Shown: positions 17,190 to 57,474 of the stretch, in pieces
How positions within the stretch are numbered: position 1 is the stretch's first letter
Layout of the letters: each line of letters opens with the position of its first letter
Notes under the pieces: model-generated
Seen by the model: only the letters and a program-made list of their open reading frames with translations
Databases searched by the model: none
What the model was told of the DNA's origin: nothing
Translations under genes and position numbers: made by a program
Assembly: GCA_026712905.1 (NCBI GenBank)
Contig: JAPOPM010000145.1
Span: 954-64,953, forward strand
Direction: 5' to 3'
Length of the DNA: 64,000 nt
Origin: Deltaproteobacteria bacterium
GTDB taxonomy: Bacteria > Desulfobacterota > Binatia > UBA9968 > JAJDTQ01

Positions 17190-18740
<1,551 letters not shown>

Positions 18741-24505: not shown

Positions 24506-24864
24506 ACCTCCACGCCAGCCCCCGCCTGTAGAGGCGTACCACAGGGCAATATTGCCTGCGGCTACCGTCGTCACGCTTCACCACTCTTGACAGCGTAACG
24601 ATACGGAGCGAGGACTTCCCTCGCTTATGTGTCGAAACGCGTTGCTGAGTTCCATCGCCGCCGATGAGCACACCGAAACGTCGACATTATGTCCCTCAGA
24701 TGACACTGCGTCAGTTTCCCGACGAAAGCGGATGGCTCTGCGGTTGTAGGCGGGGCGTAGGCCGACGGACAGGTTTGGCACGGTATTCGCTTCTACTGTG
24801 GTTTGAGTCAGAACTCGACTACTACCCGGTTCGGTTGTGCGATCCTTGAGTATCACATAGAGCA

Positions 24865-25269
24865 GTGGCCTTACCCTTCGAATTCGTCGTAGACGGTTCT
24901 CCCGTGTCTCAACAAGCCCGCAATGTTGAGCGCCGAAGGCAGTGGACCCGGAACGTCAGGAGCGGGGCGGCAACGCGTTGGGGTGTGGATTCACCGTTTG
25001 TAGGGCCGGTCATGGTGACCGTGACTCACTTCTTCGACCGAGGGGCTCCGGATGTCGACAATATCCCCAAGCTGATTCTGGACGCCTTGAAGGGACTGGT
25101 TTATTCTGATGACTCCCAGGTAACGGATATGCTCTGTCGTAAGAGAAACCTGAATGCCATTTTGCGAGTTCAAAGTTCATCACTTGTTTTGAATGAGGCG
25201 CTTGCCCAAGGCAGAGCATTCCTCCACGTCGTTGTGGACAATGCGCCGATTCAGGAGGTGATTTCCTGA
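24865..25269 (+). CDS. rusA: RusA-family Holliday-junction resolvase-like endonuclease
   Basis: 134 aa. …VMVTVTHFFDRGAPDVDNIPKLILDALKGLVYSDDSQVTDM aligns with the E. coli RusA catalytic core (…[39 protein letters not shown]). GTG start, about 50% GC. Confidence 0.7.
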   Translation: MALPFEFVVDGSPVSQQARNVERRRQWTRNVRSGAATRWGVDSPFVGPVMVTVTHFFDRGAPDVDNIPKLILDALKGLVYSDDSQVTDMLCRKRNLNAILRVQSSSLVLNEALAQGRAFLHVVVDNAPIQEVIS

Positions 25270-25919
25270 TGGAAGACGCAACCATTCTCGAATCAAGACT
25301 CGCCGACGTAACGGCAGAGGAATACCGCAGCAAGGGCTACGCCGTGTCCCGAGACGAGTCCCTGGATTTCTTGCCCGGTTTCCGCGCGGATTTGGTCGCC
25401 CGGAAAGGTGACGAAACAAAGGTGATCGAAGTGAAATGCCGGTCCACGCTGACCGCGACTCCCGAAGTGACAAAGCTGGCGCAACTGCTCAACTCAAAGC
25501 CTGGGTGGAGCTTCGAGTTGATTCTTGTGGGTGAACCCGAGGGCCTGGAGTCACCTGACGGCGCGAAGTCGTTCGAGGGAGAGAACATCCTTCAGCGGAT
25601 TGCGCAGGCTGAAAGAGTGCTTGAATCAGGTTTTGCCGAGGCGGCCTTTCTTCTTGCCTGGTCGGCATGCGAGGCCCTGTTGAGGATGATGATCGAGGAA
25701 GAGGGGGTCTCGATCAAACGTATAACGACATCGGGCTACGTCCTCAATCTTGCGGTCGTTCATGGCGTCATCTCAAGGGACGACTATCAGGGTCTCGCCG
25801 ACATGATGAAATGCAGGAACGCCATTGCCCACGGGTTCGGCATTAACAAGTTTGGTGATGAGCAGGTGACGGTACTGATCGAGACTACGAAGCGACTCGC
25901 CCGCATGCCTTCGCAGTAG
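25269..25919 (+). CDS. two-domain protein: N-terminal PD-(D/E)XK (YraN/Hjc-like) nuclease fold + C-terminal HEPN-like (Rx4HG) domain
   Basis: N-terminus GFRADLVARKGDETKVIEVKCRS (D…ExK). C-terminus MKCRNAIAHGFG (R-x4-H HEPN signature, DUF4145-like). ATG overlaps the rusA-like stop (TGATG), with AGGAGG upstream. This is a motif-level inference. Confidence 0.5.
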   Translation: MEDATILESRLADVTAEEYRSKGYAVSRDESLDFLPGFRADLVARKGDETKVIEVKCRSTLTATPEVTKLAQLLNSKPGWSFELILVGEPEGLESPDGAKSFEGENILQRIAQAERVLESGFAEAAFLLAWSACEALLRMMIEEEGVSIKRITTSGYVLNLAVVHGVISRDDYQGLADMMKCRNAIAHGFGINKFGDEQVTVLIETTKRLARMPSQ

Positions 25920-25988
25920 CGACCCAGCGGCTATTCGCGCGATGATCTGGACCATGCTGGCTCCCATGCGGAAGAATCGAGTCGGCAG

Positions 25989-30264: not shown

Positions 30265-31416
30265 ATGCCGTTTTCATTAAAGGAGGACCAGGAAATGCTG
30301 GCCTACCATTTCACCGAGATGCCTTATCCCTTCCTCCCCGATGATGCGGAGGAAACCTACGGGGCCATGCGCGTGACCCTGCCCAGCCGCTACTGCGATC
30401 CAAAGATCGCCCACGATCTCTACAACCGCTACCTCGACGAGTACGAGTACGCCGACGAGCTGGGCCTGGAGATCATGCTCAACGAGCATCACGCCACGGC
30501 CACTTGCATGGCGGCCAACGTCTCCATCACCGCCGGCACCCTGGTGCGCCGCACCAAGCGCGCCAAGATCCTGGTGCTGGGCTTCCCGCTGGCACACCGG
30601 AGCCCCATCCAGGTGGCCGAGGACGCCGCCATGATCGACGTCATTTCCGGCGGCCGGCTCATCGCCGGTTTCGTCCGCGGCGTGGGCACCGAGATCCATC
30701 CCGCCAACACCAACCCCTCCGACACCCGGGAACGCATGCAGGAGGCCCACGACCTCATCATCAAGGCATGGAAGACCCAGGACGTGTTCAACTGGGAGGG
30801 CAAGCACTACCACTACCGCTACGTCAACCCGTGGCCGCGCCCCTACCAGCAGCCCCATCCCCCCATCTGGATCACCGGCAGCCAGCCGGCGGCCGTGCCC
30901 TGGGTGGCCGACCACCACTACACCCTGGCCACCGTGCTCACCTCCTACGAGCAGACCGAAGCCCTCTTCACCGCCTACCGCAAGCGCTGCGAGGAGATGA
31001 ACTACCCTGAGCCCGGCACCGACAGGTTCGCCTATTGCGCCCTGACTTTCACCGGCGAGACCGACAAGAAAGCGGAAGAGGGCGGCCGCAAGCTCCTCTG
31101 GTACCTCAACAAGCGCCGCCCCGTGGGCTTCTTCGCTCCGCCCGGGTTCGTGCCCCCCCAGGGCCTCACCCGTTTCTTCGACCCCAAGGGCATGGCCCGC
31201 TACAACCGCACCTACGAAGACCTCATCGACCAGGGCGTCATCATCGCCGGCACCCCCAAGAAGGTCATCGAAAAGGTCAGGTACCTCTACGACCGCTGCG
31301 GCGTGGGGCACCTGCTCATGATGAACCAGGCCGGGTTCATGACCCACGAGGAGACGAAGCGGAGCATGGAGCTGTTCGCGACGGAGGTTTATCCGGAGTT
31401 GAAGACGTGGCAGTGA
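30265..31416 (+). CDS. LLM-class (luciferase-like) flavin-dependent oxidoreductase
   Basis: TIM-barrel LLM motifs (LGLEIMLNEHH, ISGGRLIAGFVRGVG). The 3' segment 31078-31254 is duplicated at 36714-36890. Confidence 0.85.
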   Translation: MPFSLKEDQEMLAYHFTEMPYPFLPDDAEETYGAMRVTLPSRYCDPKIAHDLYNRYLDEYEYADELGLEIMLNEHHATATCMAANVSITAGTLVRRTKRAKILVLGFPLAHRSPIQVAEDAAMIDVISGGRLIAGFVRGVGTEIHPANTNPSDTRERMQEAHDLIIKAWKTQDVFNWEGKHYHYRYVNPWPRPYQQPHPPIWITGSQPAAVPWVADHHYTLATVLTSYEQTEALFTAYRKRCEEMNYPEPGTDRFAYCALTFTGETDKKAEEGGRKLLWYLNKRRPVGFFAPPGFVPPQGLTRFFDPKGMARYNRTYEDLIDQGVIIAGTPKKVIEKVRYLYDRCGVGHLLMMNQAGFMTHEETKRSMELFATEVYPELKTWQ

Positions 31417-31559
31417 GGCGGCGCAAACGCTAGTAACGCACCCCTTCTTTCTTCCGGTTCGGGAGAGCGGAACCATGCCCCGCTTCCAGGGGGCGCGGCG
31501 CTCTCGTCGGCCCGTGTCCCACAGCGCTTACCGGATGGCCGTGTGACCTTGGGCGCGAT

Positions 31560-32171
31560 CTACAAAGGCTCGGAGCGATGTTCGGTTTCCGGCATCCACA
31601 CCAGCTGATTCTTCCAGACTTTCTCCTGTGCGATCTGGACGCACACTCCCCAGATCGCCAAGAGCGCCTCCGGGCTGTTCCTCGGCAGTGGCTTGTCTTC
31701 AATCAGCGTGTAACGCCACCGCTCATAGCCAGCCCCTTTCGGGCCGGAGATAAGAGTCAGGAAATGGTCCACTCTCCCAATAGCAAGGTAGGAGTGTAGC
31801 GATCGGAATCGCTCGTAGAACTCTGGCACGGTGTTTTGCGTCGGCTCTTCGATCTTCGAAAATAGCCAACCCAAGTTGTGCGTCCGGAACGGATACCGCC
31901 AAGCGTTACTCTCTCCCACGTCGGCGTTCTCCGGGACTGCAAGATCGATCAACTCTGCGATGGTCAGCCCTGTTTGCTCTGCAATCAGGTACTTTAGCGT
32001 TTGCTCAAGACCGCTATAGGCAGCAGTGATCACCGTCCAGTTCCTTGCGATGTCGGTGCCCGGATGTACTTCCTGCGTCAACGGCTCCTTTCCCAGCATT
32101 TCCTTAGTCTTCTTGTGCGCCGTCAGGAGCCGCTGCACCTTCTCGATCCTTGCCTCTCTCGGCATCGGCAT
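31560..32171 (-). CDS. hypothetical protein (orphan, about 50% GC) downstream of fic
   Basis: 203-aa ORF, 27 nt after the Fic stop. I recognise no family. It contains an R-x4-H-like element (RFRSLH). Low GC suggests horizontal origin. Confidence 0.45.
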   Translation of the reverse strand: MPMPREARIEKVQRLLTAHKKTKEMLGKEPLTQEVHPGTDIARNWTVITAAYSGLEQTLKYLIAEQTGLTIAELIDLAVPENADVGESNAWRYPFRTHNLGWLFSKIEEPTQNTVPEFYERFRSLHSYLAIGRVDHFLTLISGPKGAGYERWRYTLIEDKPLPRNSPEALLAIWGVCVQIAQEKVWKNQLVWMPETEHRSEPL

Positions 32172-32198
32172 GGGCGTTACTTCCTGCTTGGCTGAGTG

Positions 32199-33350
32199 TC
32201 ATCGCCGCTGGGGCTCAGTCTCAATGGCCACCGGGCAGACGAATTCGTAGCTAGTGCTCCGACCCCCAGTCTTGCTACGGACCAGGATTCCACGCTCTAT
32301 CAGATCGCGAATGTCTCGATTCGCCGTGTCCTGCGAGCAGCGGTTTATCGTTGCCCACTTCGACGAGGTGAGTTTCCCTTCGAAGCCGTCCAGAAGCCGG
32401 TTGAGGATCTTCACTTGGCGCTCGTTTAGGGGCTCGTGGGCATGGGCTTCCCAAAAGCGGGCCTTTGTCAGCACGGTGGCGAGCGTTTCCTGAGCGTTCT
32501 CGATGGCGCGTGCGAGACATTCGAGAAACCAGACCTGCCAATCGATGACATCCAGGCTACCTTTTTGGGTTGCCTCAAGGATGTCGTAGTAGGCGTTGCG
32601 CTCCAGGCGGATCTGGGCGGACATGCTGTAGAATCGCTCGGGGCTCTCTTCCGACCGGGCCAGCGCCATGTCGGCGATGGCCCGTGCGATACGTCCGTTG
32701 CCGTCGTCGAAAGGATGAATGGTGACGAACCAGAGATGAGCGATGCCGGCGGCGAGCACGGGCTCCATCGACTGTGTGCCTTCGAACCATTCCAGGAACC
32801 TGGATATCTCGTCCCCGAGGCGCTCGGCAGGCGGAGCGGTATAGTGAACGCGCTGGCGACCGACCGGGCCTGAGACCACCTCCATCGGCCCGTCCCCGTC
32901 GTCGCGCCATTGGCCGACGCGAATCCGGCGCATGCCGCTGCGCCCGGTCGGGAACAGGGCGGCGTGCCACGAGAACAGCCGTTCTTCGGTCAGGGGCTCG
33001 GCATAGTTCCGAGTAGCGTCGAGCGCCATTTCGACGGCGCCGTCGATGTTGCGATCAGCCGCCGGCAGGCCGCCGATATCAAGGCCGAGGCGGTTTGCAA
33101 TCGACGAGCGGACCTGGTCGGGGGCGAGCATCTCTCCCTCGATCTCGTTCGTCTTCACGACATCCTCGGTGAGCGTGCGCAACGTGGCTTGGCTGCGCAT
33201 CTCGAAACCCAGTGCCTCCATGCGGCCAAGCAGTCTTCCCTGGATGTGGCGTGTGTGCGCGAGGTGCTCGGCGAGCCGGGCCGTATCCTGCTGGAACCGC
33301 GGCCAATCCGGACGTTGCCAGATGTATGCAGGATATTCTCCGTGCAACAT
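32199..33350 (-). CDS. fic: Fic-family protein (class II, N-terminal inhibitory helix; C-terminal winged-helix)
   Basis: Fic motif HPFDDGNGRIARA (HPFx[D/E]GNGR). An N-terminal TNEIEG matches the [S/T]xxxE[G/N] auto-inhibition motif. Confidence 0.85.
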   Translation of the reverse strand: MLHGEYPAYIWQRPDWPRFQQDTARLAEHLAHTRHIQGRLLGRMEALGFEMRSQATLRTLTEDVVKTNEIEGEMLAPDQVRSSIANRLGLDIGGLPAADRNIDGAVEMALDATRNYAEPLTEERLFSWHAALFPTGRSGMRRIRVGQWRDDGDGPMEVVSGPVGRQRVHYTAPPAERLGDEISRFLEWFEGTQSMEPVLAAGIAHLWFVTIHPFDDGNGRIARAIADMALARSEESPERFYSMSAQIRLERNAYYDILEATQKGSLDVIDWQVWFLECLARAIENAQETLATVLTKARFWEAHAHEPLNERQVKILNRLLDGFEGKLTSSKWATINRCSQDTANRDIRDLIERGILVRSKTGGRSTSYEFVCPVAIETEPQRR

Positions 33351-33534
33351 GCGGAGAATATAGCACCCACTCTCTTCATTGACAAGTTAATCTCCGCCTA
33401 TATTGCGGAGGTAAGGAGCTTTATTCTCCGCGACCGTGCTGAAAGATCCTTCTAGTTTTCACCGATGGGAAGACGAAGTTGGTGAGAATCGGAACCGCGC
33501 CTACACTTCCTATTGAGCGTAGGAGCATTGCATT

Positions 33535-33564
33535 TTGTCAGTTTCATTGGTATTCTTCTGACAA
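33535..33564. promoter_or_regulatory. inverted repeat TTGTCAG-N16-CTGACAA immediately upstream of abiEi-like gene (candidate operator)
   Basis: 7-bp perfect arms about 20 nt before the start codon in an AT-rich divergent promoter region. AbiEi-type antitoxins are known autorepressors binding inverted repeats. Confidence 0.35.
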
Positions 33565-33585
33565 AATTGGTTGCGAGAAACCATC

Positions 33586-34182
33586 ATGCCCAGCCTGTCC
33601 AAACAAATCATGCAGCACACCGGCTCTCTTCGGGAGGGCACGCCGATCTGCGCCGGCCCGCTGCTTCATCTCGGCAGCCGAGCGGCGGTCGATCAGGCGC
33701 TCTCTCGCCTCGCGCGTTCCGAGAGGCTGATGCGGATCTGCCAAGGGATCTACATGAAGCCGGTCGAAACCCGGTTCGGGCAGTGCGCACCCAGCATCGA
33801 TAAGGGGATTGAGGCGCTCGCGGCCATGTGGGGCGAGACCATCGTCCCCTGCGGTGGTGCCGCGGCGCATGTTCTCGGCCTCACAACCCAGATTCCAGTG
33901 CGGTCGGTCTATCTCACATCCGGCCCCGATCGCTGCCTGCGGTTCGGTAGTCTGGAAGTCGAACTGCGTCATGCCCCGCGCTGGCAGCTCACGGCTCCCC
34001 GCCGCAGGGCCGGCGATGTCATCCGTGCCTTGGCCTGGCTTGGTCCGGCCGAGATCCGGGAGGGGCTGGAAGCTGTTGTGCCAAGCCTCTCTCGCGAGGA
34101 TGTGGAAGAGCTTGCCGAGGCGCGGGCGACCATGCCGCATTGGATGGCGGAGCCGGTGAGTGCCCTTGTCACGAATGGCTGA
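33586..34182 (+). CDS. AbiEi-like antitoxin / transcriptional regulator (DUF6088-like)
   Basis: About 200-aa protein immediately upstream of, and overlapping, an AbiEii nucleotidyltransferase gene. The size and pairing fit the type IV AbiE module. A TTG at 33571 is an alternative start. Confidence 0.6.
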   Translation: MPSLSKQIMQHTGSLREGTPICAGPLLHLGSRAAVDQALSRLARSERLMRICQGIYMKPVETRFGQCAPSIDKGIEALAAMWGETIVPCGGAAAHVLGLTTQIPVRSVYLTSGPDRCLRFGSLEVELRHAPRWQLTAPRRRAGDVIRALAWLGPAEIREGLEAVVPSLSREDVEELAEARATMPHWMAEPVSALVTNG

Positions 34183-35191
34183 GGTATCGTTCCAGTCTTT
34201 GGCGGCCCGCGACAGGCGGGAGGCACTGAGAGCAGCGCAGGAAGCGAGCGGGATGCGGGCCTTCCTCCTGGAGAAGGATATCTGGGTCGTTCAGACGTTG
34301 CGCGTCCTGTTCGACTTGCCGTTCGGCTCCGACATTGTGTTCAAGGGCGGCACGTCGCTGGCAAAGGCCTACCAGGTAATCCGCCGCTTCTCGGAGGATA
34401 TCGACGTTACCTACGACATCCGCGCCTTCGCACCGGACCTCGTGACCGGCGCGGGCGCCGAGGCGCTGCCACCGACGCGAAGCCAGGAGCAACGCTGGAG
34501 CAGCGCCATCCGCTCGCGTCTCGCCGCATGGGTCCGGGGCGAGTGCCTCCCGGCGGTTGGCGAGTGCCTCGCGCGTGAAGGTTTCTCAGCCGAGGTCCGC
34601 GCCTCAGGAGAACGGCTGCTCGTTCGTTATGAGTCGTTGTTCGACGACCCTGGATTCGTCAGGCCCGAAGTCATGGTTGAGTTTGGCGCGCGCGGGACGG
34701 GCGAACCGCACGAAAAGCGTCCGGTGGCGTGTGACGCGGCGCCTCATCTTCCTGGCATCGTTCTGCCAACAGCTTCTCCGTCGGTCATGCTGGCCGAACG
34801 TACATTCTGGGAAAAGGCCACGGCCATTCACGTGTTCTGCCGTCAGCAGCGCCACCGGGGCGAGCGACTGTCCCGCCACTGGCACGACGTCGCACGGTTG
34901 GACGCGGCCGGATACGCCGGCAACGCCCTCGCTGAGCGCGAGCTCGCGTTGACGGTAGCCCGGCACAAGGCGGCGTTTTTTCGCGAGAAGGACGTCGCGG
35001 GCAAGTGGATAGACTATGAGACCGCCGTTTCGGGCGGGCTTCAACTGGTCCCGGACGGCCTCGCTCGGGACGCGCTCGCTGAGGACTACGACAGGATGGT
35101 TTCCGACGGCATGCTGTTGGGCGATGCCGAACCGTTCGACGCGCTCCTCGAGCGTTGCCTTGATCTCGAGGCAAGAGCCAATTTGCGCTGA
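34175..35191 (+). CDS. nucleotidyltransferase AbiEii/AbiGii toxin-family protein
   Basis: Hallmark IVFKGGTSLAKAY…DIDV (NTase GS…D.D motif). The start overlaps the abiEi-like stop by 8 nt. Confidence 0.8.
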   Translation: MAEVSFQSLAARDRREALRAAQEASGMRAFLLEKDIWVVQTLRVLFDLPFGSDIVFKGGTSLAKAYQVIRRFSEDIDVTYDIRAFAPDLVTGAGAEALPPTRSQEQRWSSAIRSRLAAWVRGECLPAVGECLAREGFSAEVRASGERLLVRYESLFDDPGFVRPEVMVEFGARGTGEPHEKRPVACDAAPHLPGIVLPTASPSVMLAERTFWEKATAIHVFCRQQRHRGERLSRHWHDVARLDAAGYAGNALAERELALTVARHKAAFFREKDVAGKWIDYETAVSGGLQLVPDGLARDALAEDYDRMVSDGMLLGDAEPFDALLERCLDLEARANLR

Positions 35192-35216
35192 ACCGGATGC
35201 CGTAGCGACGTAACCT

Positions 35217-36257
35217 TCACCCCATCAACGCCCCGAACCCCACCCCTGTCAAGATCGCGCCCGCGACGCCGAATCCCACGTAGGCGGCGAACACCTGCCA
35301 GCGCACCAGCGACCACACGGCGACCATGGAGGGGACGCAGGTCACGGCGCCGGCGACCATGAAGGCCAGGGCGGCGCCGGCGCTCATGCCCTGTTCCATG
35401 AGGCCGGCGACGAGGGCGGGCGCGGCATAGCCGTTGAGGTAGGCGGGCGTACCCACCAGGGCGCCGATCACGATGGGGCCGGCCCCGGGTCCCCCGACCA
35501 GGCCCGCGATCAACGCGGCCGGCACGTAGGTGACGAGCAGGGCCTGGATCAGGTAGGCGAACGCCAGCCACTTGACCAGGAACCGCGCGTTCTCCAGCGA
35601 TTCGGACCGGAAGTTGGCCGCCCGCGCCGGCTCGCGCCAGAATCGCCAGACAATCTCGCCCGTCTCGAGGGTGCTGCCGCAGGCGCCGCAACCGCCCGCC
35701 GCGTCTTCCCGCAACGGGGCGGCGAACGCATGGCGCCGGACCAGGAGGCGCACACCGAAGCCGCCGAAGAGACCGATGGCGACGGCCGCCGCAGCCTTCC
35801 CCACGGCGAAGTCCCAGCCGAGGGCGGCGGCGGTAATGAGCGCGGCGGGAGGGTCGATGACGGGGGAGGACAGCCAGAAGGCCATGATGGCGGAGAGCGG
35901 CGCGCCGATCGCCAGCAGCGCCGCGATGAAGGGGATGACCTCACAGGCGCAGAAGGGAGCGAGGCCGCCGACAAGCGCCGCCAGGAAGATCATGCGCGTC
36001 TCGCGTCCTTCGAAGGCACGCGCCACGAGGGCCGTGGTTCCCGTCGCCCTGAGATACGCGATGAGCAGCACCGCCGCGGCGATGAAGGGCACCGTTCCCG
36101 CGAACGCCGCCAACGCGATCCACAGGATGTCCGGCAACTCGGTGGCGTCCAGCACCGCCACGGCGAGCGGGACGGCGAGCATGAGGCCCCAGACCGACAC
36201 CACGCCCCGGACCCCCGTGCGCAACCCGTTGACTCCGTTCAGAACCAGTTCCGTCAT
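35217..36257 (-). CDS. permease, UPF0718/YraQ (ArsP-like) family
   Basis: Two-repeat permease with the conserved PFCACE motif in TM (ArsP has TPFcSCS) and a Cys-rich cytoplasmic loop (GGCGACGS). It is adjacent to an ArsR regulator. Confidence 0.7.
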   Translation of the reverse strand: MTELVLNGVNGLRTGVRGVVSVWGLMLAVPLAVAVLDATELPDILWIALAAFAGTVPFIAAAVLLIAYLRATGTTALVARAFEGRETRMIFLAALVGGLAPFCACEVIPFIAALLAIGAPLSAIMAFWLSSPVIDPPAALITAAALGWDFAVGKAAAAVAIGLFGGFGVRLLVRRHAFAAPLREDAAGGCGACGSTLETGEIVWRFWREPARAANFRSESLENARFLVKWLAFAYLIQALLVTYVPAALIAGLVGGPGAGPIVIGALVGTPAYLNGYAAPALVAGLMEQGMSAGAALAFMVAGAVTCVPSMVAVWSLVRWQVFAAYVGFGVAGAILTGVGFGALMG

Positions 36258-36637
36258 GACGGTTCTTTCGTGAGTGCGGCCCGGGCGGCGCGGGCCTGGA
36301 GCGATGGGCAGGCATCAACGCAACACTCTTCGAGCAGAAACGCGGCAAGCGCTTCGAGACGGCGGTAGGCGGCACGGTTGATCACGATGCGGCCCCGGCG
36401 CTCCTGCTCGACCAGCCCGCCGGCGGCAAGGAAGCCGAGATGGTGGGCGAGCGTCGAGGCCGGCAAGCCCGAGCGCTCCTGGACCTCGCCTACCGTGAGC
36501 CCTTCGGCCCCGGCGCGCACGAGCAGGCGAAGCACCGTGAGCCTCGGCTCGGAGCCGCACGCGGCGAATCCCTGCGCCGCTTCCTCAAGCGCCAGCGTGG
36601 AGGTTGGCGAAGTCCTGGAATAAGAGGTTATATCCAC
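36254..36637 (-). CDS. arsR: ArsR/SmtB-family metalloregulator with C-terminal Cys cluster
   Basis: wHTH (LRLLVRAGAEGLTVGEVQERSGLPASTLAHHLGFL) and a C-terminal CCVDAC. The start is uncertain (GTG at 36637 abuts a palindrome). Confidence 0.65.
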   Translation of the reverse strand: MDITSYSRTSPTSTLALEEAAQGFAACGSEPRLTVLRLLVRAGAEGLTVGEVQERSGLPASTLAHHLGFLAAGGLVEQERRGRIVINRAAYRRLEALAAFLLEECCVDACPSLQARAARAALTKEPS

Positions 36638-36657
36638 ATAACTAATTATATAGTTAT
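36638..36657. promoter_or_regulatory. AT-rich palindrome ATAACTAATTATATAGTTAT (candidate ArsR operator)
   Basis: 7-bp inverted arms ATAACTA/TAGTTAT in a 20-bp fully AT-rich tract directly upstream of arsR. ArsR operators are typically imperfect 12-2-12 palindromes. Confidence 0.35.
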
Positions 36658-36713
36658 AATTGCCAATGTCAACCCTCACGCAAGGTCCGGCGCCCGAGCC
36701 GTCTCTACCGTGC

Positions 36714-36890
36714 GAGGGCGGCCGCAAGCTCCTCTGGTACCTCAACAAGCGCCGCCCCGTGGGCTTCTTCGCTCCGCCCGGGTTCGTGCCCCCCCAGGGC
36801 CTCACCCGGTTCTTCGACCCCAACGGCATGGCCCGCTACAACCGCACCTACGAAGACCTCATCGACCAGGGCGTCATCATCGCCGGCACC
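36714..36890 (+). pseudogene. 177-bp duplicated 3' fragment of the LLM oxidoreductase gene (direct repeat of 31078-31254)
   Basis: Encodes EGGRKLLWYLNKRRPVGFFAPPGFVPPQGLTRFFDPNGMARYNRTYEDLIDQGVIIAGTP. It differs from the intact gene at about 2 nucleotides and has no upstream coding context. Confidence 0.7.
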
Positions 36891-36926
36891 CCTCTGAACA
36901 CCTTACCGGGCGGCGGCGGACACCGC

Positions 36927-37880
36927 CTAGTCCGCCGCCGTCCGCCGGCTCCATTCTATCCAGGAGCCATCATAAAGGTGTAATCTCTCCACCGGGAACC
37001 CCATCAGGTAGAGCGCGAAGAACGGCGTGGCGGCGCGCACGCCGGAGTGGCAATAGAAGATGTGATCGTGCCCGGGTTCGAATCCAACCTGTTGTAGCAG
37101 CGCGTCGATCTCGGCGGCGGTCCGGAACTCCGACGGCCGGCCTTGGTCCACCTTTCGGAAAGCCCGCCATCCGATGAAGCGGGCCCAGCCGATGCGCCCG
37201 GCCGGCAGGCCGCCGAGCCGCACCGACCCATCCCATTCCCTCACACTGCGAGTGTCCCAGACGTGAGTTCCCGCGTCCGAGCGGCCTCGGTGGACATCCG
37301 CCATATCGGCGGTCCAGCCGGCGACGGCGGGTGCTGCAACGAAATCCCCGGTGCTGGGGGCCGAATGTCCGCGACCGCGATCGACGTCGTAACCTGCCGC
37401 TTTCCAGGCGGTCAGGCCGCCGTCGAGCACCCGGACATCGGATTTCCCGTACAGGCGAAAGAGCCACCAGAGGCGTGCGGCGTCGTAGGTTTGGTCATAG
37501 ACGACGACGGTGGACTCGTTGTTGATACCGAGCCCGCGCGCGAACTCCTGGAAGCGCTCGCGGCCCAGCGCCATGCCGTCCCGGCCGGTGTAGGCGCGGC
37601 GCGGGGCATGGAAGGAGCCGGGAATATGCCCAACCAGCCAGGAGACCCGCCGGACCGCGGCCAGCACGATCGGTTTCGAAGCGGATCCATCCAGCATCGC
37701 CTTGACTTCGGCCGCCGTAACCAGAGCATGCCCGCGCGGGAAGCCCTTGTACGGCTCGGCATGCACGGGGCCCCACAGCAGCAGGAGGACCAGTGGCACG
37801 AGAATGGTGCGAAACGGCCTGCTTTCCTTCGGCGACAGCCAGCTTGCCTCGAAGATGTCGATGAAGTGTCTCATGTCCAT
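36927..37880 (-). CDS. thiosulfate/3-mercaptopyruvate sulfurtransferase (two-domain rhodanese), secreted
   Basis: Signal peptide (ILVPLVLLLLWGPVHA) and the catalytic rhodanese loop CHSGVRA. Confidence 0.8.
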   Translation of the reverse strand: MDMRHFIDIFEASWLSPKESRPFRTILVPLVLLLLWGPVHAEPYKGFPRGHALVTAAEVKAMLDGSASKPIVLAAVRRVSWLVGHIPGSFHAPRRAYTGRDGMALGRERFQEFARGLGINNESTVVVYDQTYDAARLWWLFRLYGKSDVRVLDGGLTAWKAAGYDVDRGRGHSAPSTGDFVAAPAVAGWTADMADVHRGRSDAGTHVWDTRSVREWDGSVRLGGLPAGRIGWARFIGWRAFRKVDQGRPSEFRTAAEIDALLQQVGFEPGHDHIFYCHSGVRAATPFFALYLMGFPVERLHLYDGSWIEWSRRTAAD

Positions 37881-38188
37881 GATCTTATTCGAACCATTCC
37901 TTATACCAACCCTTATTTCAATCGCCGCCGTTGAAGTCGAGGCGAGCGCATGGCGCTGAAGCGCGGGTTCGACGGTCAGGCGGTTCCTGCCCGCCAGCCA
38001 CCCGTCGACGTAGACCCAGGCGACCAGCGTTCTGTCGCGTCACCTGCACGTCGGGGTTGGTGTTCTCGGCGCGCAGCGAGAACGTGGTGCACACCCCGGC
38101 ACCCGGCTGCCGCGCCTTTACAATTCTTTACCTCTCGGACAAACGGCGGCAACCGCATGGCGGGACAGTGCATGGAGGAGGTGCTGCC

Positions 38189-38674
38189 ATGCGGATCAAT
38201 CCCCCGACCCTTTTCTGGATCCTGATCGCCGGGATCTTCGCGGTCCATCGCTTCTACCCCGTAATCCGGTTCGAACAGCCGGAGATCCCGTGGCTCGGTG
38301 CGGCGATCTTTATCCTCGGGATCACAATTTCAGCGGCCGGCAAGAAGAAGTTCCTCAGGGTCGGCACCAACGTCTACACGTTCGAGGAGCCGGGCGAGCT
38401 GGTCACGGACGGGCTTTACGGCAAGAGTCGAAACCCGATGTACCTGGGGCTGGTCCTGGCCGGGTTTGGGGCCGCGCTTGTTTCGGGGACGCTGGCGGCT
38501 GTCACCTTCAGTGCGATCTTCGGTCTCATGGTACGCTATTGGTATGTAGCCTACGAGGAGCGGGCGATGCGGCGGAAGTTCGGCGATCAATACGAAGACT
38601 ATTGCCGTAGGGTCCGGCGCTGGTTCGGGCGCCGGCGTGTGCCGCCGCGGGTGCACGCGTCGCAAGCCTCGTAG
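38189..38674 (+). CDS. isoprenylcysteine carboxyl methyltransferase (ICMT)/phospholipid methyltransferase-family membrane protein
   Basis: 161 aa, 4 TM. ICMT C-terminal motif RNPMYLG…EE (SAM-binding). GGAGGAG lies 9 nt upstream of the ATG. Confidence 0.75.
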   Translation: MRINPPTLFWILIAGIFAVHRFYPVIRFEQPEIPWLGAAIFILGITISAAGKKKFLRVGTNVYTFEEPGELVTDGLYGKSRNPMYLGLVLAGFGAALVSGTLAAVTFSAIFGLMVRYWYVAYEERAMRRKFGDQYEDYCRRVRRWFGRRRVPPRVHASQAS

Positions 38675-38685
38675 CAGGGGAAGCC

Positions 38686-39381
38686 ATGCCGCGCCTCTTG
38701 ATGATCGAGGACGATCGCGCCCTTGCTGACATGGTGGCCACCTACCTCGCCCAGGCGGGCATGACCCTCGAACATCGCGGAAACGCCGAGGAAGGGCTGG
38801 CGGCCGCCCTCGAAGGCGGCTACGACGCGGTAGTCCTGGACCTGATGCTGCCCGACGGCGAGGGCCTGGAGGTCTGCCGGGCGATTCGCGCCGGCTCCGC
38901 CGTGCCGATCCTGATGCTCACGGCCCGTGGCGAGGAGGCGGACCGCATCGTAGGCCTCGAGCTCGGGGCCGACGACTACCTGCCCAAACCCTTCAACCCA
39001 CGCGAGCTGCTGGCCCGCCTGCGCGCGATCCTGCGGCGCTTTGCAGGCGGCGATGAGCATGCCGAGCAACTGCGCTTCGGCAGGCTCACCATCGACCGCG
39101 CTGCCCGGCGGGTGCTGGTGGACGGCGAGGAGCGGTCGCTCACCGGCCACCAGTTCGATCTGCTCTGTGCCCTCGCCGAAAGCCCCGGACGCGTTCTCAG
39201 CCGCGATCAGCTCATGGACCGGGTGCGCGGAGAGGAGCTGGAGGCCTTCGACCGCAGCATCGACGTGCATGTCTCGCGGATACGGGCGGTCATCGAGGAC
39301 GACCCCAAACATCCACGCCGCATCGTCACCCTGCGGGGAGCGGGCTACCTCTTCACCCGCCGCCAGGACGAGAAACCATGA
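38686..39381 (+). CDS. OmpR-family response regulator
   Basis: Receiver domain (phospho-acceptor Asp in AVVLDLMLPDG) plus a winged-helix output domain (…LRGAGYLF). Confidence 0.9.
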   Translation: MPRLLMIEDDRALADMVATYLAQAGMTLEHRGNAEEGLAAALEGGYDAVVLDLMLPDGEGLEVCRAIRAGSAVPILMLTARGEEADRIVGLELGADDYLPKPFNPRELLARLRAILRRFAGGDEHAEQLRFGRLTIDRAARRVLVDGEERSLTGHQFDLLCALAESPGRVLSRDQLMDRVRGEELEAFDRSIDVHVSRIRAVIEDDPKHPRRIVTLRGAGYLFTRRQDEKP

Positions 39382-40400
39382 GAAAACGCCTTTTCCTCCG
39401 GATCTATCTGGCCCTCCTGGGCACTGTCGTGCTGTTCGGGGTGCTCGTTTCGGTGGCTTGGTGGCTGGGACACCTCGACCGCCCGGCCCGGGTGCTGCCC
39501 CACACGCCGGAATTCGGCTTCGTTGCCGCCCTGGTCATCCTCGCGCTGGCCGTCGCCATCGCCGCCTACCCCGTGGCCCGTCGCCTGACGCGGCGCCTGG
39601 AGCGGCTACGGACACGGGTCGATGCGCTGGGAGCCGGCGACCTTGCCACCCGGGTCGAGGTCGAGGGCAACGACGAGGTGGCCGAGCTGGCGCGCAGTTT
39701 CAACAGGTCGTCGGAGCGCATGCAGGCGCTGGTCAACGCCCAGCGCGACACGCTCGCGGCCGCGTCGCACGAGCTTCGTTCGCCCTTGGCGCGCATTCGC
39801 ATGGCCGTCGAGTTGTTGCCGGCCAACGGGGATCCGTCGCTGCGCGTCCGTGTGGAGCGGGACATCCGGGAGCTGGACGACCTGATCGAGGAGATCCTCC
39901 TGGCCGGACGCCTGAGGACCCTGGAGCGTCCCGCGCATCTGGAGGGCGTCGATCTCCAGGCGCTGGCCGCCGAGGAGGCGGCCCGAGCCGGAGCCGTGTT
40001 CGTGGGCGGACCGATGACGGTGGAGGGCGAATGCCGCCTGCTCGCCCGCCTGATACGCAATCTCCTCGAAAATGCCACGCGCCATGCGCCGGGAACCTCC
40101 ACCCTTGTGGATCTGGAGGCCGCCGAAGGACGCGCGGTCCTGCGCGTCTTGGACCGCGGCCCGGGCGTGGCGGAGACGGAGCGGGAGCGTATCTTCGAGC
40201 CCTTCTATCGCCGCCCAGGAGGTTTCGCGAGTGGGGAAGGAGATGATCGGAAGGGCAGCGGCCTGGGCCTCAGCCTGGTGCGCCAGATCGCGCGGCGCCA
40301 CGGCGGCGAGGCGAGCTGCCGGCCGCGCGACGGCGGCGGAAGCTGCTTCGAAGTGAGTCTGCCGCTCCGGCAGCAGCAGTGGCAGCCCGCGCCGCGGTGA
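39378..40400 (+). CDS. sensor histidine kinase (HAMP-HisKA-HATPase)
   Basis: Two TM helices; H-box AASHELRSPLARI; N, G1 and G2 boxes (NLLENATRHA, DRGPGV, GSGLGLSLV). It overlaps the RR stop. Confidence 0.85.
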   Translation: MRKRLFLRIYLALLGTVVLFGVLVSVAWWLGHLDRPARVLPHTPEFGFVAALVILALAVAIAAYPVARRLTRRLERLRTRVDALGAGDLATRVEVEGNDEVAELARSFNRSSERMQALVNAQRDTLAAASHELRSPLARIRMAVELLPANGDPSLRVRVERDIRELDDLIEEILLAGRLRTLERPAHLEGVDLQALAAEEAARAGAVFVGGPMTVEGECRLLARLIRNLLENATRHAPGTSTLVDLEAAEGRAVLRVLDRGPGVAETERERIFEPFYRRPGGFASGEGDDRKGSGLGLSLVRQIARRHGGEASCRPRDGGGSCFEVSLPLRQQQWQPAPR

Positions 40401-40422
40401 TCGCGGTCGTGCGCGAAAACGA

Positions 40423-40746
40423 TTGTCCCGCCACTGGCACGACGTCGCGCGGTTGGACGTGGCGGGATACGCCGGCAAGGCCCTCACCGACCGCGCGCTC
40501 GCGTTGTCGGTGGCCCGGCACAAGGGGACGTTCTTTCGCGAGAAGGACGTTGCGGGCCGGTGGATAGATTATGAGACCGCCGTTTCGGGCGGGCTGCAAC
40601 TGGTCCCGGACGGCTTCGCTCTGGACGCGCTCGGTGAGGACTACGGCAGAATGGTCTCAGACGGCATGCTGTTGGGCGATGCCGAACCGTTCGATGCGCT
40701 CATCGAGCGTTGCCGTGACCTTGAGGCGAGGGCCAATCTGGGCTGA
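40423..40746 (+). pseudogene. degraded duplicate of the abiEii 3' end (continues to about 40855 with the permease 3' end on the opposite strand)
   Basis: Translation SRHWHDVARLDVAGYAGKALTDRALALSVARHKGTFFREKDVAGRWIDYETAVSGGLQLVPDG… is about 85-90% identical to the C-terminus of the 34175-35191 gene. The following about 100 bp matches 35217-35300. Confidence 0.7.
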
Positions 40747-40874
40747 ACCTGAAAATGCCGTAGCGTTCACCCGACCAACGCCCCGAACCCCACCCCTGTC
40801 AAAATCGCGCCCGCGACCCCGAATCCCATGTAGGCGGCGAACTTCGGTCAGACTCGCGACGGCATGTTAGGCTA

Positions 40875-41912
40875 CTACAAGTCCGGCACCAGCACCGGCT
40901 TGAGCGCCTCCCCGTCCCGGATCAGCTCGAACCCGCGTGGCGCTTCGGAAAGCGGCAGGACGTGGCTTCGGACCGGGGCGAGATCGACGGCGCCGGCCGA
41001 GAGCAGTTCGGTAGCGCGCTGCCAGGTCTGCCAGATCAGGCGCCCGTGGATGTTGTGCATGACCGGGCATTTGAGCAGCCAGTAGGTGAAGTCCACGGGG
41101 ATGGCCGACGGCGGCGCGCCCACCAGCCGGAAGTCGCCGCCCTTGGCGAGGGAGGCGAAGACCGCGTTGAAGCCGGCTTCGGTGCCCGAGAATTCGATGC
41201 CGGCATCGGCGCCCGCACCGCCGGTCATGTCGCCCACCACGCTCGCCAACTCCTCGTTGCCGGCATCCACCGCGCGGTCGGCGCCCATGGTCTCGGCCGC
41301 GCGGAGACGGAGCGGGTTGATGTCGCAGGCGATGACCTTGACGGCGCCCAGGGCACGCGCGGCCGCCACCGCCATGAGCCCGATGGGGCCGCACCCGTTC
41401 ACCAGCACGGACAGCCCCGAGACGCCGGCGCCCGCGAGGCAGGCGTGGACGGCGATGCCGAAGGGTTCGAGCATGGCCGCGGTTTCGTGGGGAAGGCCGG
41501 GCGGATTCGCCCACGCGATGGACGCGGGCACGGTCAGGTACTCGGCGAACGCGCCGTCGATGTCGATGCCGGGGTAGCGGGTGTTCTCGCACAGATGGGC
41601 GCGCCCGAGCCGGCAGGACCGGCAACGGCCGCAGAAGATGTGGCTTTCGAGGCTCACCCGGTCGCCGGCCGCGAGACCTTCGACCCCAGGGCCGGCGGAC
41701 TCGACGGTGCCCGACGCTTCATGCCCCAGGACCCGCGGCAGCACCATGCGGCGCGCCATGCGCGGTGCCCAGTTGTAGATCTGCAGGTCGGTGCCGCAGA
41801 TCCCGGCGGCGCCCACCCGGATCAATATCTCGCCGGGGCCGGGTTCGCGCGGCTCCGTCTCGCGGACCGCGATGCCGCCCACCTCCGGCGCGATCTTCTG
41901 AAGGCTCAGCAA
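40875..41912 (-). CDS. Zn-dependent alcohol dehydrogenase (L-threonine 3-dehydrogenase-like MDR)
   Basis: GICGTD, GHEASG and structural Zn CGRCRSCRLGRAHLC. A TTG start is proposed (GGGAG SD) at LSLQKIAPEVGG. The track ORF is over-extended. Confidence 0.75.
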   Translation of the reverse strand: MLSLQKIAPEVGGIAVRETEPREPGPGEILIRVGAAGICGTDLQIYNWAPRMARRMVLPRVLGHEASGTVESAGPGVEGLAAGDRVSLESHIFCGRCRSCRLGRAHLCENTRYPGIDIDGAFAEYLTVPASIAWANPPGLPHETAAMLEPFGIAVHACLAGAGVSGLSVLVNGCGPIGLMAVAAARALGAVKVIACDINPLRLRAAETMGADRAVDAGNEELASVVGDMTGGAGADAGIEFSGTEAGFNAVFASLAKGGDFRLVGAPPSAIPVDFTYWLLKCPVMHNIHGRLIWQTWQRATELLSAGAVDLAPVRSHVLPLSEAPRGFELIRDGEALKPVLVPDL

Positions 41913-41920
41913 CGGGCTCC

Positions 41921-42427
41921 CTACAGGTGATAGATGTCCACCGGCCCTTCGAGCCGGTCGTCGATGAAGATGATCTTCTTGCGCGCGATCTTGAGCGCGC
42001 CGTCGATACGCAGGAACGTGTAGTCGTAGCGGCTGCCGCGGGTCTGTGCCCCCTTCTTGCCGTAGACGTGCACGATGCAGTTGGCGGTGGCCTCGACCGC
42101 GTCGCCCTCCGCGCGTTCCACCAGCACGTTGCCGATGACGTGCACCGTGCGGTCGAGTGGCAGCGAGGCCCAGGACTGGCGCGACTCGATGCGGAACACC
42201 CGGTCTTCGAGCCGGCCGCGGTCCTTGAGGTAGAGCAGGTTGAGCTGGGTCTCGGGATCGGTGGTGGTCTCCTCCTCGCTGGCCCAGGCCGGAGCCCAAT
42301 ACACGGCGTCCTCGGCGTAGAGTTCCAGCCACTCCTGCCAGCGGCGCCGGTCCAGCAGCATGGCCTCGCGGCTGATCAGCGCCGCCACCTCGCGCTCCAG
42401 CGCGGCGTCGATGCCGTTCGTGCTCAT
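41921..42427 (-). CDS. aromatic-ring-hydroxylating dioxygenase beta subunit (NTF2/SnoaL-like)
   Basis: 168 aa starting MSTNGIDAALEREVAALISREAMLLDRRRWQEWLELYAEDAVYWAP. Coupled to the alpha subunit by a 4-bp overlap. Confidence 0.8.
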   Translation of the reverse strand: MSTNGIDAALEREVAALISREAMLLDRRRWQEWLELYAEDAVYWAPAWASEEETTTDPETQLNLLYLKDRGRLEDRVFRIESRQSWASLPLDRTVHVIGNVLVERAEGDAVEATANCIVHVYGKKGAQTRGSRYDYTFLRIDGALKIARKKIIFIDDRLEGPVDIYHL

Positions 42428-43782
42428 CGGGCGTCCTGTCCGGCCAATGCGCCGCCCGCTCCGTTCTCGATCCGCTCCAGCCACGCCCGGTAGAAGCCGT
42501 GGAACATTCCCTCGTGCTCCCAGTCCGGGCAGGACGCCGCCGCCTCGAAGCCCAGTTCCCGGGCGTCCCGGTCGGGGCCGGCGACCATGACGTCCATGCC
42601 GCGGGTCATGTCGTTCCACTGGCTCGGCGGTCCCAGCGAGCCGTGCTGGATCGCTTCGAGCGCGGCGGCATCGTCCGACGTCGCCATCCCGGCCGTCAGG
42701 TAGAAATCCTCGAACTTCCTGAGGCGCGCGGCCCGCGCCGTGTCGCTCTCTCCCTTGGGCGCGATGCAGTAGACCGTGACCTCCGTCAATCGGGGCGACA
42801 CCGGCTTCACGAACCGGATCTGCGTCGACGGGTTGTCCATCAGCATCACGTTGGGAAACAGGTATAGGTTGCGGCCGCGGTTGAGGATCCAGTCCACTTC
42901 CGCCGGCTTGAGATTCTCTTCGAGCCACGCCCGCGCTTCGTAGATCGGGCGGACGTGCGGCGTGGTGTGCAGCGCCCACAGCCCCATGTGCCCGTTGCCC
43001 AGGTCGTAGGTGCCGCTGGGCACCTTGCCCTTGATGCGCCCGGACTCGGTCCGGCGCATGCCGCCCGTGGCGTCACGGGCGTCGCGCTGGGCCACGGTGG
43101 AGGCGAACACGCTGTGGAGGGTGGTCACGTGGTAGCCGTCGACGCTGTTCTCGGCCTGCAGCTTCCAGTTGCCGTGGACCGCGTAGGTGGAACAGCCGGG
43201 CACCACCTCCATCCCGTCCCGTCCCTGATCGGCCAGCAGGTCGATCCAGCGCGCCGCGGCCCCCAGATGGTCCCGGAGCGCGGGCACATCGCTTCTCAGG
43301 CTCCCGAACACGAACCCCTTGTAGGAGTCGAGGGCGCCGATCCGCTGGAGGTTGAAGCGTTCGCGCGCCCCTTCCGTGACCGGATAGCCGAGCTCCTCGT
43401 TCTTGATCTTGATGCAGTGTCCGGCGCGGTCGTACACCCAGCCGTGGAAACGGCAGGTGAGCACGTTGGCGTTCCCCCGCTTGAGCGGTGTCAGCACCGC
43501 GCCCCGATGGGAGCAGACATTGAGGAAGCAGCTCAGCGATCCATCCCGCTGGCGCATCACGAAGACCGGCTGGCGGCCGATTTCCGTCGACCAATAGTCG
43601 CCCGGCCTCTCCACCTGGCTTTCGTGGCAGAGAAAGACCCAGCCGCCCTCGAAGATGCGCTCGATCTCCGCCTCGAAGACCGCCTCGTCGGTGTAGACTG
43701 CCCGGTCGACGCGGAAGACTCCCTCGTCGACCCGGTCGTCCACCAAGTGGCGAAATCCGTTTCTGTCCGCGCCACGGTTCAT
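42424..43782 (-). CDS. Rieske non-heme iron oxygenase alpha subunit
   Basis: Rieske CSHRG…CRFHGW and the mononuclear iron site DGYHVTTLH. The start is chosen at the Met preceded by GAGGGA. Confidence 0.85.
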   Translation of the reverse strand: MNRGADRNGFRHLVDDRVDEGVFRVDRAVYTDEAVFEAEIERIFEGGWVFLCHESQVERPGDYWSTEIGRQPVFVMRQRDGSLSCFLNVCSHRGAVLTPLKRGNANVLTCRFHGWVYDRAGHCIKIKNEELGYPVTEGARERFNLQRIGALDSYKGFVFGSLRSDVPALRDHLGAAARWIDLLADQGRDGMEVVPGCSTYAVHGNWKLQAENSVDGYHVTTLHSVFASTVAQRDARDATGGMRRTESGRIKGKVPSGTYDLGNGHMGLWALHTTPHVRPIYEARAWLEENLKPAEVDWILNRGRNLYLFPNVMLMDNPSTQIRFVKPVSPRLTEVTVYCIAPKGESDTARAARLRKFEDFYLTAGMATSDDAAALEAIQHGSLGPPSQWNDMTRGMDVMVAGPDRDARELGFEAAASCPDWEHEGMFHGFYRAWLERIENGAGGALAGQDAR

Positions 43783-44013
43783 CTCGTCCCTCGTCCGTTC
43801 ATTCGGCGGCATCGCCGTGCGTTGCCCCGTGACTGTAGTCCGGGTACACAATTGCATGTTAAACGCTACGAGTCCACTTTTGACACGGACGACTCGGATA
43901 CCTTTGTTTTCAATACGAAATATTACCGTAGGTTGCATAAAATATTGTCAGAATGAATAATGAGCCGAGGAACAAACGCCGAAACTGCCAAGGAATTGAC
44001 AAGGTTGGATTGA

Positions 44014-48923: not shown

Positions 48924-49118
48924 CGGCGTCGCGGCGGAGCTGCTCAACACCTCGCCCCGTTGCGGGCGTGTCGGCTATGGCCCTCGAATATGGCTAGCTG
49001 CATGTGTTCGAGGACGGTAACGGTAGGATCCGCCGTTACGTTGAACACCATGTCGTGGCCGGGCGCAGGCTCAACCCGCCGGCGGAGACGGACCCGATGA
49101 AGGCGGTAGACGACCTAC

Positions 49119-57464: not shown

Positions 57465-57474
57465 GGGGTCCGGC

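Follow-up and report, generated by a model that had tools for sequence, protein, structure and literature searches.

How does a fragment of a housekeeping gene come to lie behind a block of toxin and defence genes whose other edge is formed by the intact gene itself? The question is raised by a locus in a 64,000-nt window (contig JAPOPM010000145.1 of assembly GCA_026712905.1, positions 954-64,953; coordinates hereafter are window positions) from a Deltaproteobacteria bacterium of the Binatia. There, the gene for a luciferase-like monooxygenase (LLM) is followed by a cassette of Fic, AbiEi/AbiEii, ArsP-like and ArsR-like genes, by LLM', a partial copy of the LLM gene, and by a module that starts with a rhodanese gene. 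A sequence-only reading had explained the two LLM copies as the attL and attR sites of an element whose integration regenerates the 3' end of its target. Comparison with relatives suggests another answer: the window appears to hold two alternative alleles of a variable hotspot, placed one behind the other, with the seams marked by relic fragments.

The hotspot is bordered on its left by the intact LLM gene (30265-31416, plus strand; Pfam Bac_luciferase, 4.6e-36), a conserved flank in which copy 1 of a direct repeat is located (31078-31256, plus strand). The repeat recurs as copy 2, or LLM', at 36714-36892 on the same strand. Precise alignment, as the sequence-only reading had proposed, gives 179 nt with 2 mismatches, at 31173 (T/G) and 31188 (G/C). 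With E = 5e-87 in a blastn self-comparison of the window, a chance origin in 64 kb is impossible. The near-identical repeat noticed earlier is therefore real, although it had been given as 177 nt ending at 31254/36890 and the match runs 2 nt further. It is not the 3' end of LLM, as had been supposed: copy 1 covers codons 272-331 of 383 and ends 160 nt short of the stop codon, so that the repeat is gene-internal and the native 3' end comes after copy 1. The description of copy 2 as an out-of-context fragment holds, as unrelated sequence lies on both sides of it; a 105-aa open reading frame (ORF) overlies it.

To the left of copy 2 lies the region upstream of the ArsR-like gene, including an AT-rich, partly palindromic stretch, and the end of this region is joined to LLM position 31078 at seam J1 (36713/36714; junction sequence GTCTCTACCGTGCGAGGGCGGCCGC). 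At the right edge of LLM' (36892/36893; junction sequence GCCGGCACCCCTCTGAACACC), 34 unrelated nt precede the stop codon of the convergent rhodanese gene. Homology is thus present on the LLM side, whereas the joint at 36713/36714 is essentially non-homologous: microhomology looked for there against the parental proxies L005 and LLM amounts to 0-1 nt in common, with none visible. The same stacked arrangement, with both seams, occurs in six contigs from at least five metagenome data sets (L087/L167, L168, L088, L100, L101 and L169), two of which, L087 and L088, match the window arrangement at 100% and 99.96% identity, respectively.

Relatives in a genome collection were found via the LLM protein, and ~10 kb located 3' of LLM were compared. 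LLM orthologues that are 86-99% identical at the amino acid level are present in ~25 Candidatus Binatia metagenome-assembled genomes, several of which are complete chromosomes (OZ, OY and OX records). Two alpha/beta-hydrolase genes (abh1-abh2) and LLM are syntenic in these ~25 relatives, and the abh1-abh2-LLM flank was found in all close relatives with locus coverage. Immediately beyond it, conservation ends. A post-LLM segment (31417-31539) is common only to L005, L010 and L011; the sequences of other relatives diverge 4-10 nt past the LLM stop codon. In the window, the variable region extends from the LLM stop (~31420) to ~40845, where a Zn-dependent alcohol dehydrogenase (ADH) gene ends convergently; it is wider than the island of 31078-36890 first delimited and contains a second, older relic repeat.

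Across 26 hotspot loci, 72 ORF clusters were counted. The empty allele is represented by L017, in which LLM joins the convergent Zn-ADH gene across a 94-nt spacer featuring a hairpin. Fic, AbiE, ArsP and ArsR cargo is found in various combinations at the same place in L010, L029, L005, L004, L013 and L003, and none of these six loci carries a second LLM copy, a single LLM match being present within 10 kb. Similarity to the window persists up to 36713 in L005, 36704 in L029 and 36690 in L010. Past this point, L029 and L010 join the ADH flank at 40845, so that the right edge of their cargo falls at 36690-36704, and L005 continues with different sequence; further hotspot sequence lies between cargo and ADH flank in L005 (~200 nt) and in L003. 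Other relatives feature a second AbiE type (~37% amino acid identity), a 434-aa Fic protein, an OLD/GajA-like ATPase, DUF6414, an HD protein, an M78 peptidase, a PLD-helicase, a pyrimidine-dimer glycosylase and ORFs with no Pfam match. The cargo varies between relatives and had correctly been called accessory; it is widely syntenic at this locus, a state named beforehand as speaking against a recent island, but it is not core.

Counterparts of the right-hand side of LLM' are found in alleles that lack the cassette. L080 and L085, contigs retrieved by scanning metagenomes for the rhodanese protein, carry a complete LLM gene, a 68-nt spacer and a convergent rhodanese gene, and are 93-95% (rhodanese) and 92-93% (LLM) identical to the window. 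Since the two genes diverge about equally, the LLM-rhodanese adjacency looks old, and it was probably inherited vertically. L089 and L090, short-read metagenome assemblies of mixed strains, were found, as were L087 and L088, by exact look-up of the response regulator protein encoded in the second module. In L089 and L090, LLM and the 68-nt spacer are followed by the rhodanese gene, a PEMT-family methyltransferase gene, response regulator and histidine kinase genes, a fragment of AbiEii and the ADH gene, with no cassette. All four contigs feature the empty site that had been predicted, with LLM directly before rhodanese.

Compared with the full LLM-rhodanese junction of L080, L085 and L089, LLM' has lost the terminal 160 nt of the gene along with ~30 nt of spacer. 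By this comparison, copy 2 is best read as a relic of this lineage's own former LLM-rhodanese adjacency. It differs at 2 sites from copy 1, at 5 from L002 and L010, the nearest other genomes, and at 12-13 from L080, L085 and L089; because it is so much closer to copy 1 than to the empty-site haplotypes, it is assigned to the LLM type of this strain. At site 31188, copy 2 alone has a C, and the 27 other sequences of the 28 compared have a G. The duplication of the LLM segment is young, and the claim of a recent event, resting on the same 2 sites, stands.

The LLM fragment is not the only relic. A second direct repeat, revealed by the same self-comparison, pairs 34865-35292 with 40420-40842 at 88% identity over 431 aligned columns. 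The distal copy, AbiEii'/ArsP' (40420-40842, plus strand), lies between the histidine kinase gene and the ADH flank and consists of the last 327 nt of AbiEii, the intergenic spacer and ~75 nt of the 3' end of ArsP. It is 81-91% identical to AbiEii/ArsP of relatives, is still readable as a 107-aa ORF (40423-40746) and recurs in L089, an empty-site haplotype. The divergence of AbiEii'/ArsP' (12%) differs so much from that of LLM' (1.1%) that at least two separate rounds of insertion are indicated. A truncated 440-aa gene within the cassette is the third decay product at the locus, along with LLM' and AbiEii'/ArsP'.

Several tracts point to exchange between strains. The three LLM segments of L011 are 91.7, 91.6 and 92.4% identical to the window (91.8% overall), whereas its truncated gene and Fic region is 97.3% identical; because this jump in identity falls past the stop codon, the moved tract is taken to start after the end of LLM and not at 31257. 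L089 differs from the window at 13 positions within 36936-37110 and at none over 37111-49381, with a haplotype switch between 37093 and 37155, and its LLM gene and upstream region are 86-92% identical to the window but 99% identical to L011. L091 follows the window type, save for 37155-37281, where it carries variants of the L080 type. The samples that yielded L087, L089, L091 and L100 are JGI 3300027327, 3300027328, 3300027386 and 3300027532. These mosaic tracts of nucleotide variants in the rhodanese gene, which come from short-read metagenome contigs, may be read as homologous-recombination tracts. The switches are regarded as real because a large-k graph assembly cannot switch haplotype within ~60 nt without supporting reads, and the pattern implies that co-occurring strains would have exchanged at least 12 kb between lineages very recently.

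Enzymes that could mobilize the cassette were sought in vain. No integrase, resolvase or transposase Pfam families were detected among the called genes of the window at ~7-49 kb or the large ORFs at 50-63 kb, as the sequence-only reading had noted, and no integrase was detected among 20 hotspot ORFs tested from relatives. A search of the window revealed no tRNA genes, which rules out a tRNA-targeting element for the window. The island as a unit has no match covering at least 80% of it in a plasmid collection, no phage match and no counterpart in viral contigs; the latter contain only single-gene homologues of Fic (50-70% amino acid identity) and AbiEii (29-60%). Taken together, the region after LLM seems to be an integrase-free, fast-turnover hotspot, flanked by the 3' ends of the convergent LLM and ADH genes and occupied mostly by predicted anti-phage modules.

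We favour, with a probability of roughly 0.7, the view that the cassette was inserted by recombination between strains, through a crossover anchored in LLM and one illegitimate joint, and that a deletion of ~190 nt followed. The ancestor would have carried LLM, then the rhodanese-PEMT-response regulator-histidine kinase module, then the already decayed AbiEii'/ArsP' remnant of an earlier cassette, and then ADH. DNA of a conspecific strain with the other allele (LLM, the 440-aa gene, Fic, AbiEi/AbiEii, ArsP and ArsR) would have entered via LLM homology, either by a Campbell-like single crossover with a circularized 31078-36713 fragment or by an equivalent homology-facilitated illegitimate recombination, the sole non-homologous joint being 36713/36714. 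The product would have been a complete LLM gene, the 5.3-kb cassette and a duplicated LLM tail before rhodanese. A later deletion of ~190 nt would have removed the end of the duplicated tail together with part of the spacer, leaving the 179-nt fragment, and a separate 1.26-kb deletion would have cut the 440-aa gene down to its present 203 codons. What is observed is the anatomy with its two relic repeats, the existence of empty and alternative alleles, the absence of any integrase and the mosaic tracts close by, and the scheme orders these features in time; which allele was resident, whether the intermediate was circular or one-sided, and in what order the deletions occurred are inferred. The cassette is favoured as the incomer because the Fic module is 97.3% identical to L011 while LLM is 91.8% identical, and because the LLM-rhodanese adjacency looks ancestral.

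Several points weigh against this view. It needs an extra event, the ~190-nt deletion, and the apparent CCCC(C) microhomology at the junction of that deletion rests on a divergent proxy sequence. Neither of the inferred parent alleles was found with the LLM type of this strain, as every contig with an identical LLM protein already has the cassette. Partial chimerism to the right of 37155 is conceivable for L089 and L090, the empty-site contigs, but a haplotype switch completed within 62 nt speaks in favour of real reads. The offsets of the two direct repeats, 5636 nt (LLM) and 5555 nt (AbiEii/ArsP), are nearly equal, which is treated as a coincidence. Hints of mobility are also found at the hotspot elsewhere: L002 features an IS3-like transposase OrfA right after LLM (~11250-11422), where its contig ends, L006 a 94-nt tRNA-Ile(GAT)-like gene directly after the LLM stop (11259-11352), and L015 a sequence like the 3' half of a tRNA, ending in CCA, after the LLM stop (~11180-11230). 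Recombinase-driven events may thus occur at the hotspot in general.

Such an event in the window itself, that is, site-specific integration into LLM by a since-lost integrase, with the 179-bp copies as attL and attR and the island now immobilized, accounts for accessory cargo bracketed by direct repeats, for the high identity of the repeats and for alleles in which a single LLM copy precedes rhodanese, but an empty site with one repeat copy is predicted equally well by homologous insertion. We consider it unlikely. The repeat is gene-internal, ending 160 nt before the stop, and copy 2 is not followed by the displaced 3' end that such integration would leave; 179 bp is also very long for an att core. 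At least six relatives carry the same cargo with no LLM', and the moved tract begins past the stop codon and not at 31257. No integrase was detected in the window or among the 20 hotspot ORFs from relatives, and the plasmid, phage and viral-contig collections do not contain the island as a unit. Doubtful to a similar degree is the same recombination run in the reverse direction, in which LLM-Fic-AbiE-ArsP-ArsR-ADH was resident and a conspecific fragment came in, starting within LLM at 31078, continuing with rhodanese-PEMT-response regulator-histidine kinase-AbiEii', with homology in the ADH flank as its anchor and an illegitimate joint at 36713; LLM' would then be a hitch-hiker from the left flank of the donor. 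The product is identical to that of the favoured scheme; the illegitimate joint would lie 0-200 nt from the ADH anchor, which is typical of homology-facilitated illegitimate recombination (PMC5361080), and the right-hand 12 kb are 100% identical to those of a strain with a different left flank. However, the excess similarity to a divergent lineage resides in the Fic module (97.3% vs 91.8%, L011) and not in the rhodanese module, the LLM-rhodanese adjacency looks old and vertically inherited, and the ~190-nt deletion is needed here too.

Two further explanations were rejected. Tandem duplication of a ~5.6-kb unit (31078-36713), the second copy of which was then mostly replaced by the rhodanese-kinase genes, would explain the shared direct orientation of the two repeats, their common order and their near-equal offsets. 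The divergences of 1.1% and 12% are nevertheless too unequal to stem from one event, cassette-free lineages that are ~7% diverged already have the LLM-rhodanese adjacency, and the AbiEii'/ArsP' relic is present in the empty-site haplotype L089 as well, all of which makes a duplication very improbable. A chimeric contig joining the alleles of two co-occurring strains would fit with the several closely related strains present per sample and with the contigs that break or switch haplotype inside the rhodanese gene. Yet the sequences meeting at 36713/36714 share no k-mer, so that a graph assembler cannot invent the seam, copy 2 has a derived substitution and a deletion junction of its own, and identical seams recur in the independent assemblies L087/L167, L168, L088, L100, L101 and L169; an artefact is hardly credible.

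A bolder version of the recombination scheme would make the cassette and its LLM-derived arm a recurrent mobile unit that needs no integrase: a chromosomal fragment would circularize at a preferred joint and enter related genomes again through the LLM arm with the aid of the host RecA, the trimmed arm then acting as a lock. We regard this as improbable. If it were true, it would amount to addiction by gene-fragment architecture, as loss of a defence cassette would destroy a needed housekeeping gene. Whichever way the cassette arrived, recombination between the 179-bp copies would be expected to remove it together with the last 53 LLM codons, which copy 2 does not contain. Because loss between the repeats would truncate LLM, the cassette may be effectively locked in, and its loss would be counter-selected if LLM matters to the cell.

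Hotspots of this kind have been described. Half of those surveyed by Oliveira et al. (2017, PMC5635113) have no recognizable mobile element, and the core genes flanking hotspots show raised homologous recombination; core defence hotspots are likewise reported in Pseudomonas aeruginosa (PMC10250203). The locus resembles these integrase-free hotspots in its fixed core flanks, in the differing cargo of close relatives, in its empty allele and lack of an integrase, in its mainly defence-related cargo (SoFic, two AbiE types, OLD/GajA-like, PLD-helicase) and in the probable recombination tracts of the edge genes. It differs from them in belonging to an uncultured Binatia lineage, in carrying non-defence modules (ArsR/ArsP-like permease, rhodanese, PEMT, two-component system) and in having a right flank that is itself unstable.

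A close parallel for the proposed mechanism is the 'sequential displacement' model for type VI secretion system effector-immunity arrays of V. cholerae and for Rhs loci, in which one-sided homology stacks new modules and orphaned relics are left behind (PMC5361080). Entry by one-sided homology, an old module pushed downstream instead of being replaced, truncated relics (LLM', AbiEii'/ArsP') and the absence of an integrase are common to both. Here, however, a housekeeping gene serves as the anchor in place of the conserved 5' portion of a toxin gene, no benefit like that of an immunity gene is obvious for the module that was retained, and the mechanism is deduced from anatomy. For homology-facilitated illegitimate recombination itself, PMC5361080 cites de Vries and Wackernagel (2002) and Prudhomme et al. 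(2002). Integrase-mediated genomic islands with attL/attR sites at the 3' end of a gene or tRNA likewise have their accessory cargo bracketed by direct repeats of target-gene sequence, and relatives likewise show an empty site; the locus departs from them in having no recombinase, a gene-internal 179-bp repeat that other carriers lack and a cargo boundary at the stop codon. As in Campbell-type insertion, exemplified by the integration of suicide plasmids, an intact gene is followed by the insert and by a partial direct duplicate of the homology segment. In contrast to such insertions, there is no evident replicon or vector here, the circle would be a self-ligated chromosomal fragment, and the duplicate is shorter than predicted, so that a later deletion is required.

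The type of event is thus already known and ordinary, and the locus adds a further case, from a lineage that has been little studied, to a kind of system already described. Its value lies in being a clean natural example of the rebuilding of a defence hotspot without mobile-element enzymes in an uncultured phylum-level lineage, in which empty, single-cassette and stacked alleles can be compared side by side and the succession of events can be read from three relics that differ in age. Accessory cargo bracketed by direct repeats of a target gene is not, on its own, a sign that an integrase was active. As for annotation, the 'orphan', the 105-aa ORF over LLM' and a 95-aa ORF over AbiEii' are to be treated as gene fragments.

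The 'orphan' is the first gene of the cassette (31560-32171, minus strand, 203 aa). Contrary to its earlier description as an orphan, it corresponds to the N-terminal 197 residues of a 440-aa protein, being 94% identical to an ORF that is intact in L005 (11781-13103); a match in L011 is 96% identical over the same 197 residues. Pfam and PADLOC searches yielded no match for the truncated gene or for the 440-aa protein. The deletion scar lies between 31539 and 31588, where the window is short by ~1.26 kb and L005 and L011 have an extra 1.26-2 kb. The gene starts 27 nt downstream of Fic on the same strand, and the two are probably co-transcribed. In L005 and L011, the 440-aa-type gene is likewise located directly downstream of a SoFic-like gene; its product may be a conserved Fic partner.

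The Fic gene itself (32199-33350, minus strand) encodes a DUF4172-Fic protein (Pfam DUF4172, 1.6e-31, and Fic, 2.1e-16; PADLOC SoFic, 9.4e-41). Class II Fic proteins are defined by an HxFx(D/E)GNGRxxR motif plus an N-terminal inhibitory (S/T)xxxE(G/N) motif. The translation contains both, as HPFDDGNGRIAR and TNEIEG (residues 66-71), and the protein is accordingly predicted to be SoFic-like and of class II. AbiEi (33571-34182, plus strand; Pfam DUF6088, 1.3e-20; PADLOC AbiEi, 1.2e-56) and AbiEii (34160-35191, plus strand; Pfam AbiEii, 1.4e-36; PADLOC AbiEii, 1.2e-94) overlap by 23 nt. Systems of this kind pair a winged helix-turn-helix antitoxin (AbiEi) with a nucleotidyltransferase (AbiEii), and the two genes are predicted to form a type IV toxin-antitoxin, or abortive-infection, pair. 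An ArsP_1-family permease gene (35217-36257, minus strand; Pfam ArsP_1, 1.6e-35) and an ArsR-like helix-turn-helix regulator gene (36254-~36637, minus strand; Pfam HTH_20, 8.8e-8; called as a 127-aa ArsR gene in L101) complete the cassette, and their promoter or operator is probably located in the AT-rich, partly palindromic stretch at ~36630-36665. These Pfam and PADLOC matches agree with the identities that the sequence-only reading had given to Fic, AbiEi/AbiEii, the ArsP-like permease and ArsR.

Base composition had also been cited. The GC content of the inter-repeat segment (64.1%) is marginally below that of the window (66.2%), so that the island is lower in GC as stated, but it equals that of LLM (64.2%), and low values are confined to the truncated gene (56%), Fic (63%) and one intergenic stretch (46%), ArsP and ArsR being at 69-71%. 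Low GC was rejected as a sign of foreign origin, since the island mean is that of LLM itself. In L005, the ~200 nt that occupy the place of LLM' (17597-17793) apparently encode a small Cys-rich protein on the ArsR strand, with the motif ...FCNPGCRDKF....

The second module starts directly after copy 2 with the rhodanese gene (36927-37880, minus strand), followed by genes for a PEMT/ICMT-family membrane methyltransferase (~38189-38674), an OmpR-type response regulator (38686-39381) and a HAMP/HisKA histidine kinase (39378-40400), all assigned by Pfam. The module (36927-40400) is absent in the 10 kb downstream of LLM in the genome-collection relatives and is found directly after LLM in L089 and L090. 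In the more distant genomes L081-L083, which were searched for rhodanese linked to PEMT-response regulator-histidine kinase, rhodanese occurs alone. The rhodanese gene features a length polymorphism among assemblies at 37184-37204, L088 having 36 extra nt (329 aa vs 317 aa), and contigs L085, L100 and L101 stop within ~30 nt of this site.

In this allele, the right flank of the hotspot consists of genes for the Zn-dependent ADH and for the beta and alpha subunits of a ring-hydroxylating dioxygenase (40845-43938, minus strand), and it begins at 40844-40846 in L005, L007, L010 and L029. The ADH-dioxygenase block is absent, or moved behind a metallophosphoesterase/ATPase pair, in L009, L011, L012 and L014-L016. 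That pair (44014-48923) comprises a metallophosphoesterase and a 1190-aa coiled-coil ATPase, is SbcCD-like with weak PADLOC matches to LmuB and mad3, and has a DUF3037 gene beyond it, as seen in L087; it is 61-76% identical at the amino acid level in relatives whose LLM is 92-97% identical. Because the block moves and the pair diverges, the right flank of the hotspot is itself unstable, and the pair may be a further defence-like variable module.

Exact protein look-ups gave no record for the 383-aa LLM, the 343-aa AbiEii and the ORF at 57403-59790, while a 373-aa LLM call did match; the empty look-ups are probably due to different start codons picked by gene callers. Elsewhere in the window, a palindromic element similar to repetitive extragenic palindromes (REP-like), TTCCCGCG(A/G)AAGCGGGAATCC, often followed by CAGGGGGGGCGGGGCCCC, occurs in 6 copies of 21 nt each (at 4772, 20611, 20682, 27080, 27151 and 28475), compared with 0.02 expected by chance. 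The copies are intergenic and sometimes form inverted pairs, and the element is also found just after LLM in L022 and L023. Adjacent RusA and AHJR-like (Holliday-junction-resolvase-like) genes at ~25012-25919 lie in a segment (24508-25988) that is unaligned in many relatives; amid housekeeping genes, it could represent either a prophage remnant or a separate small indel.

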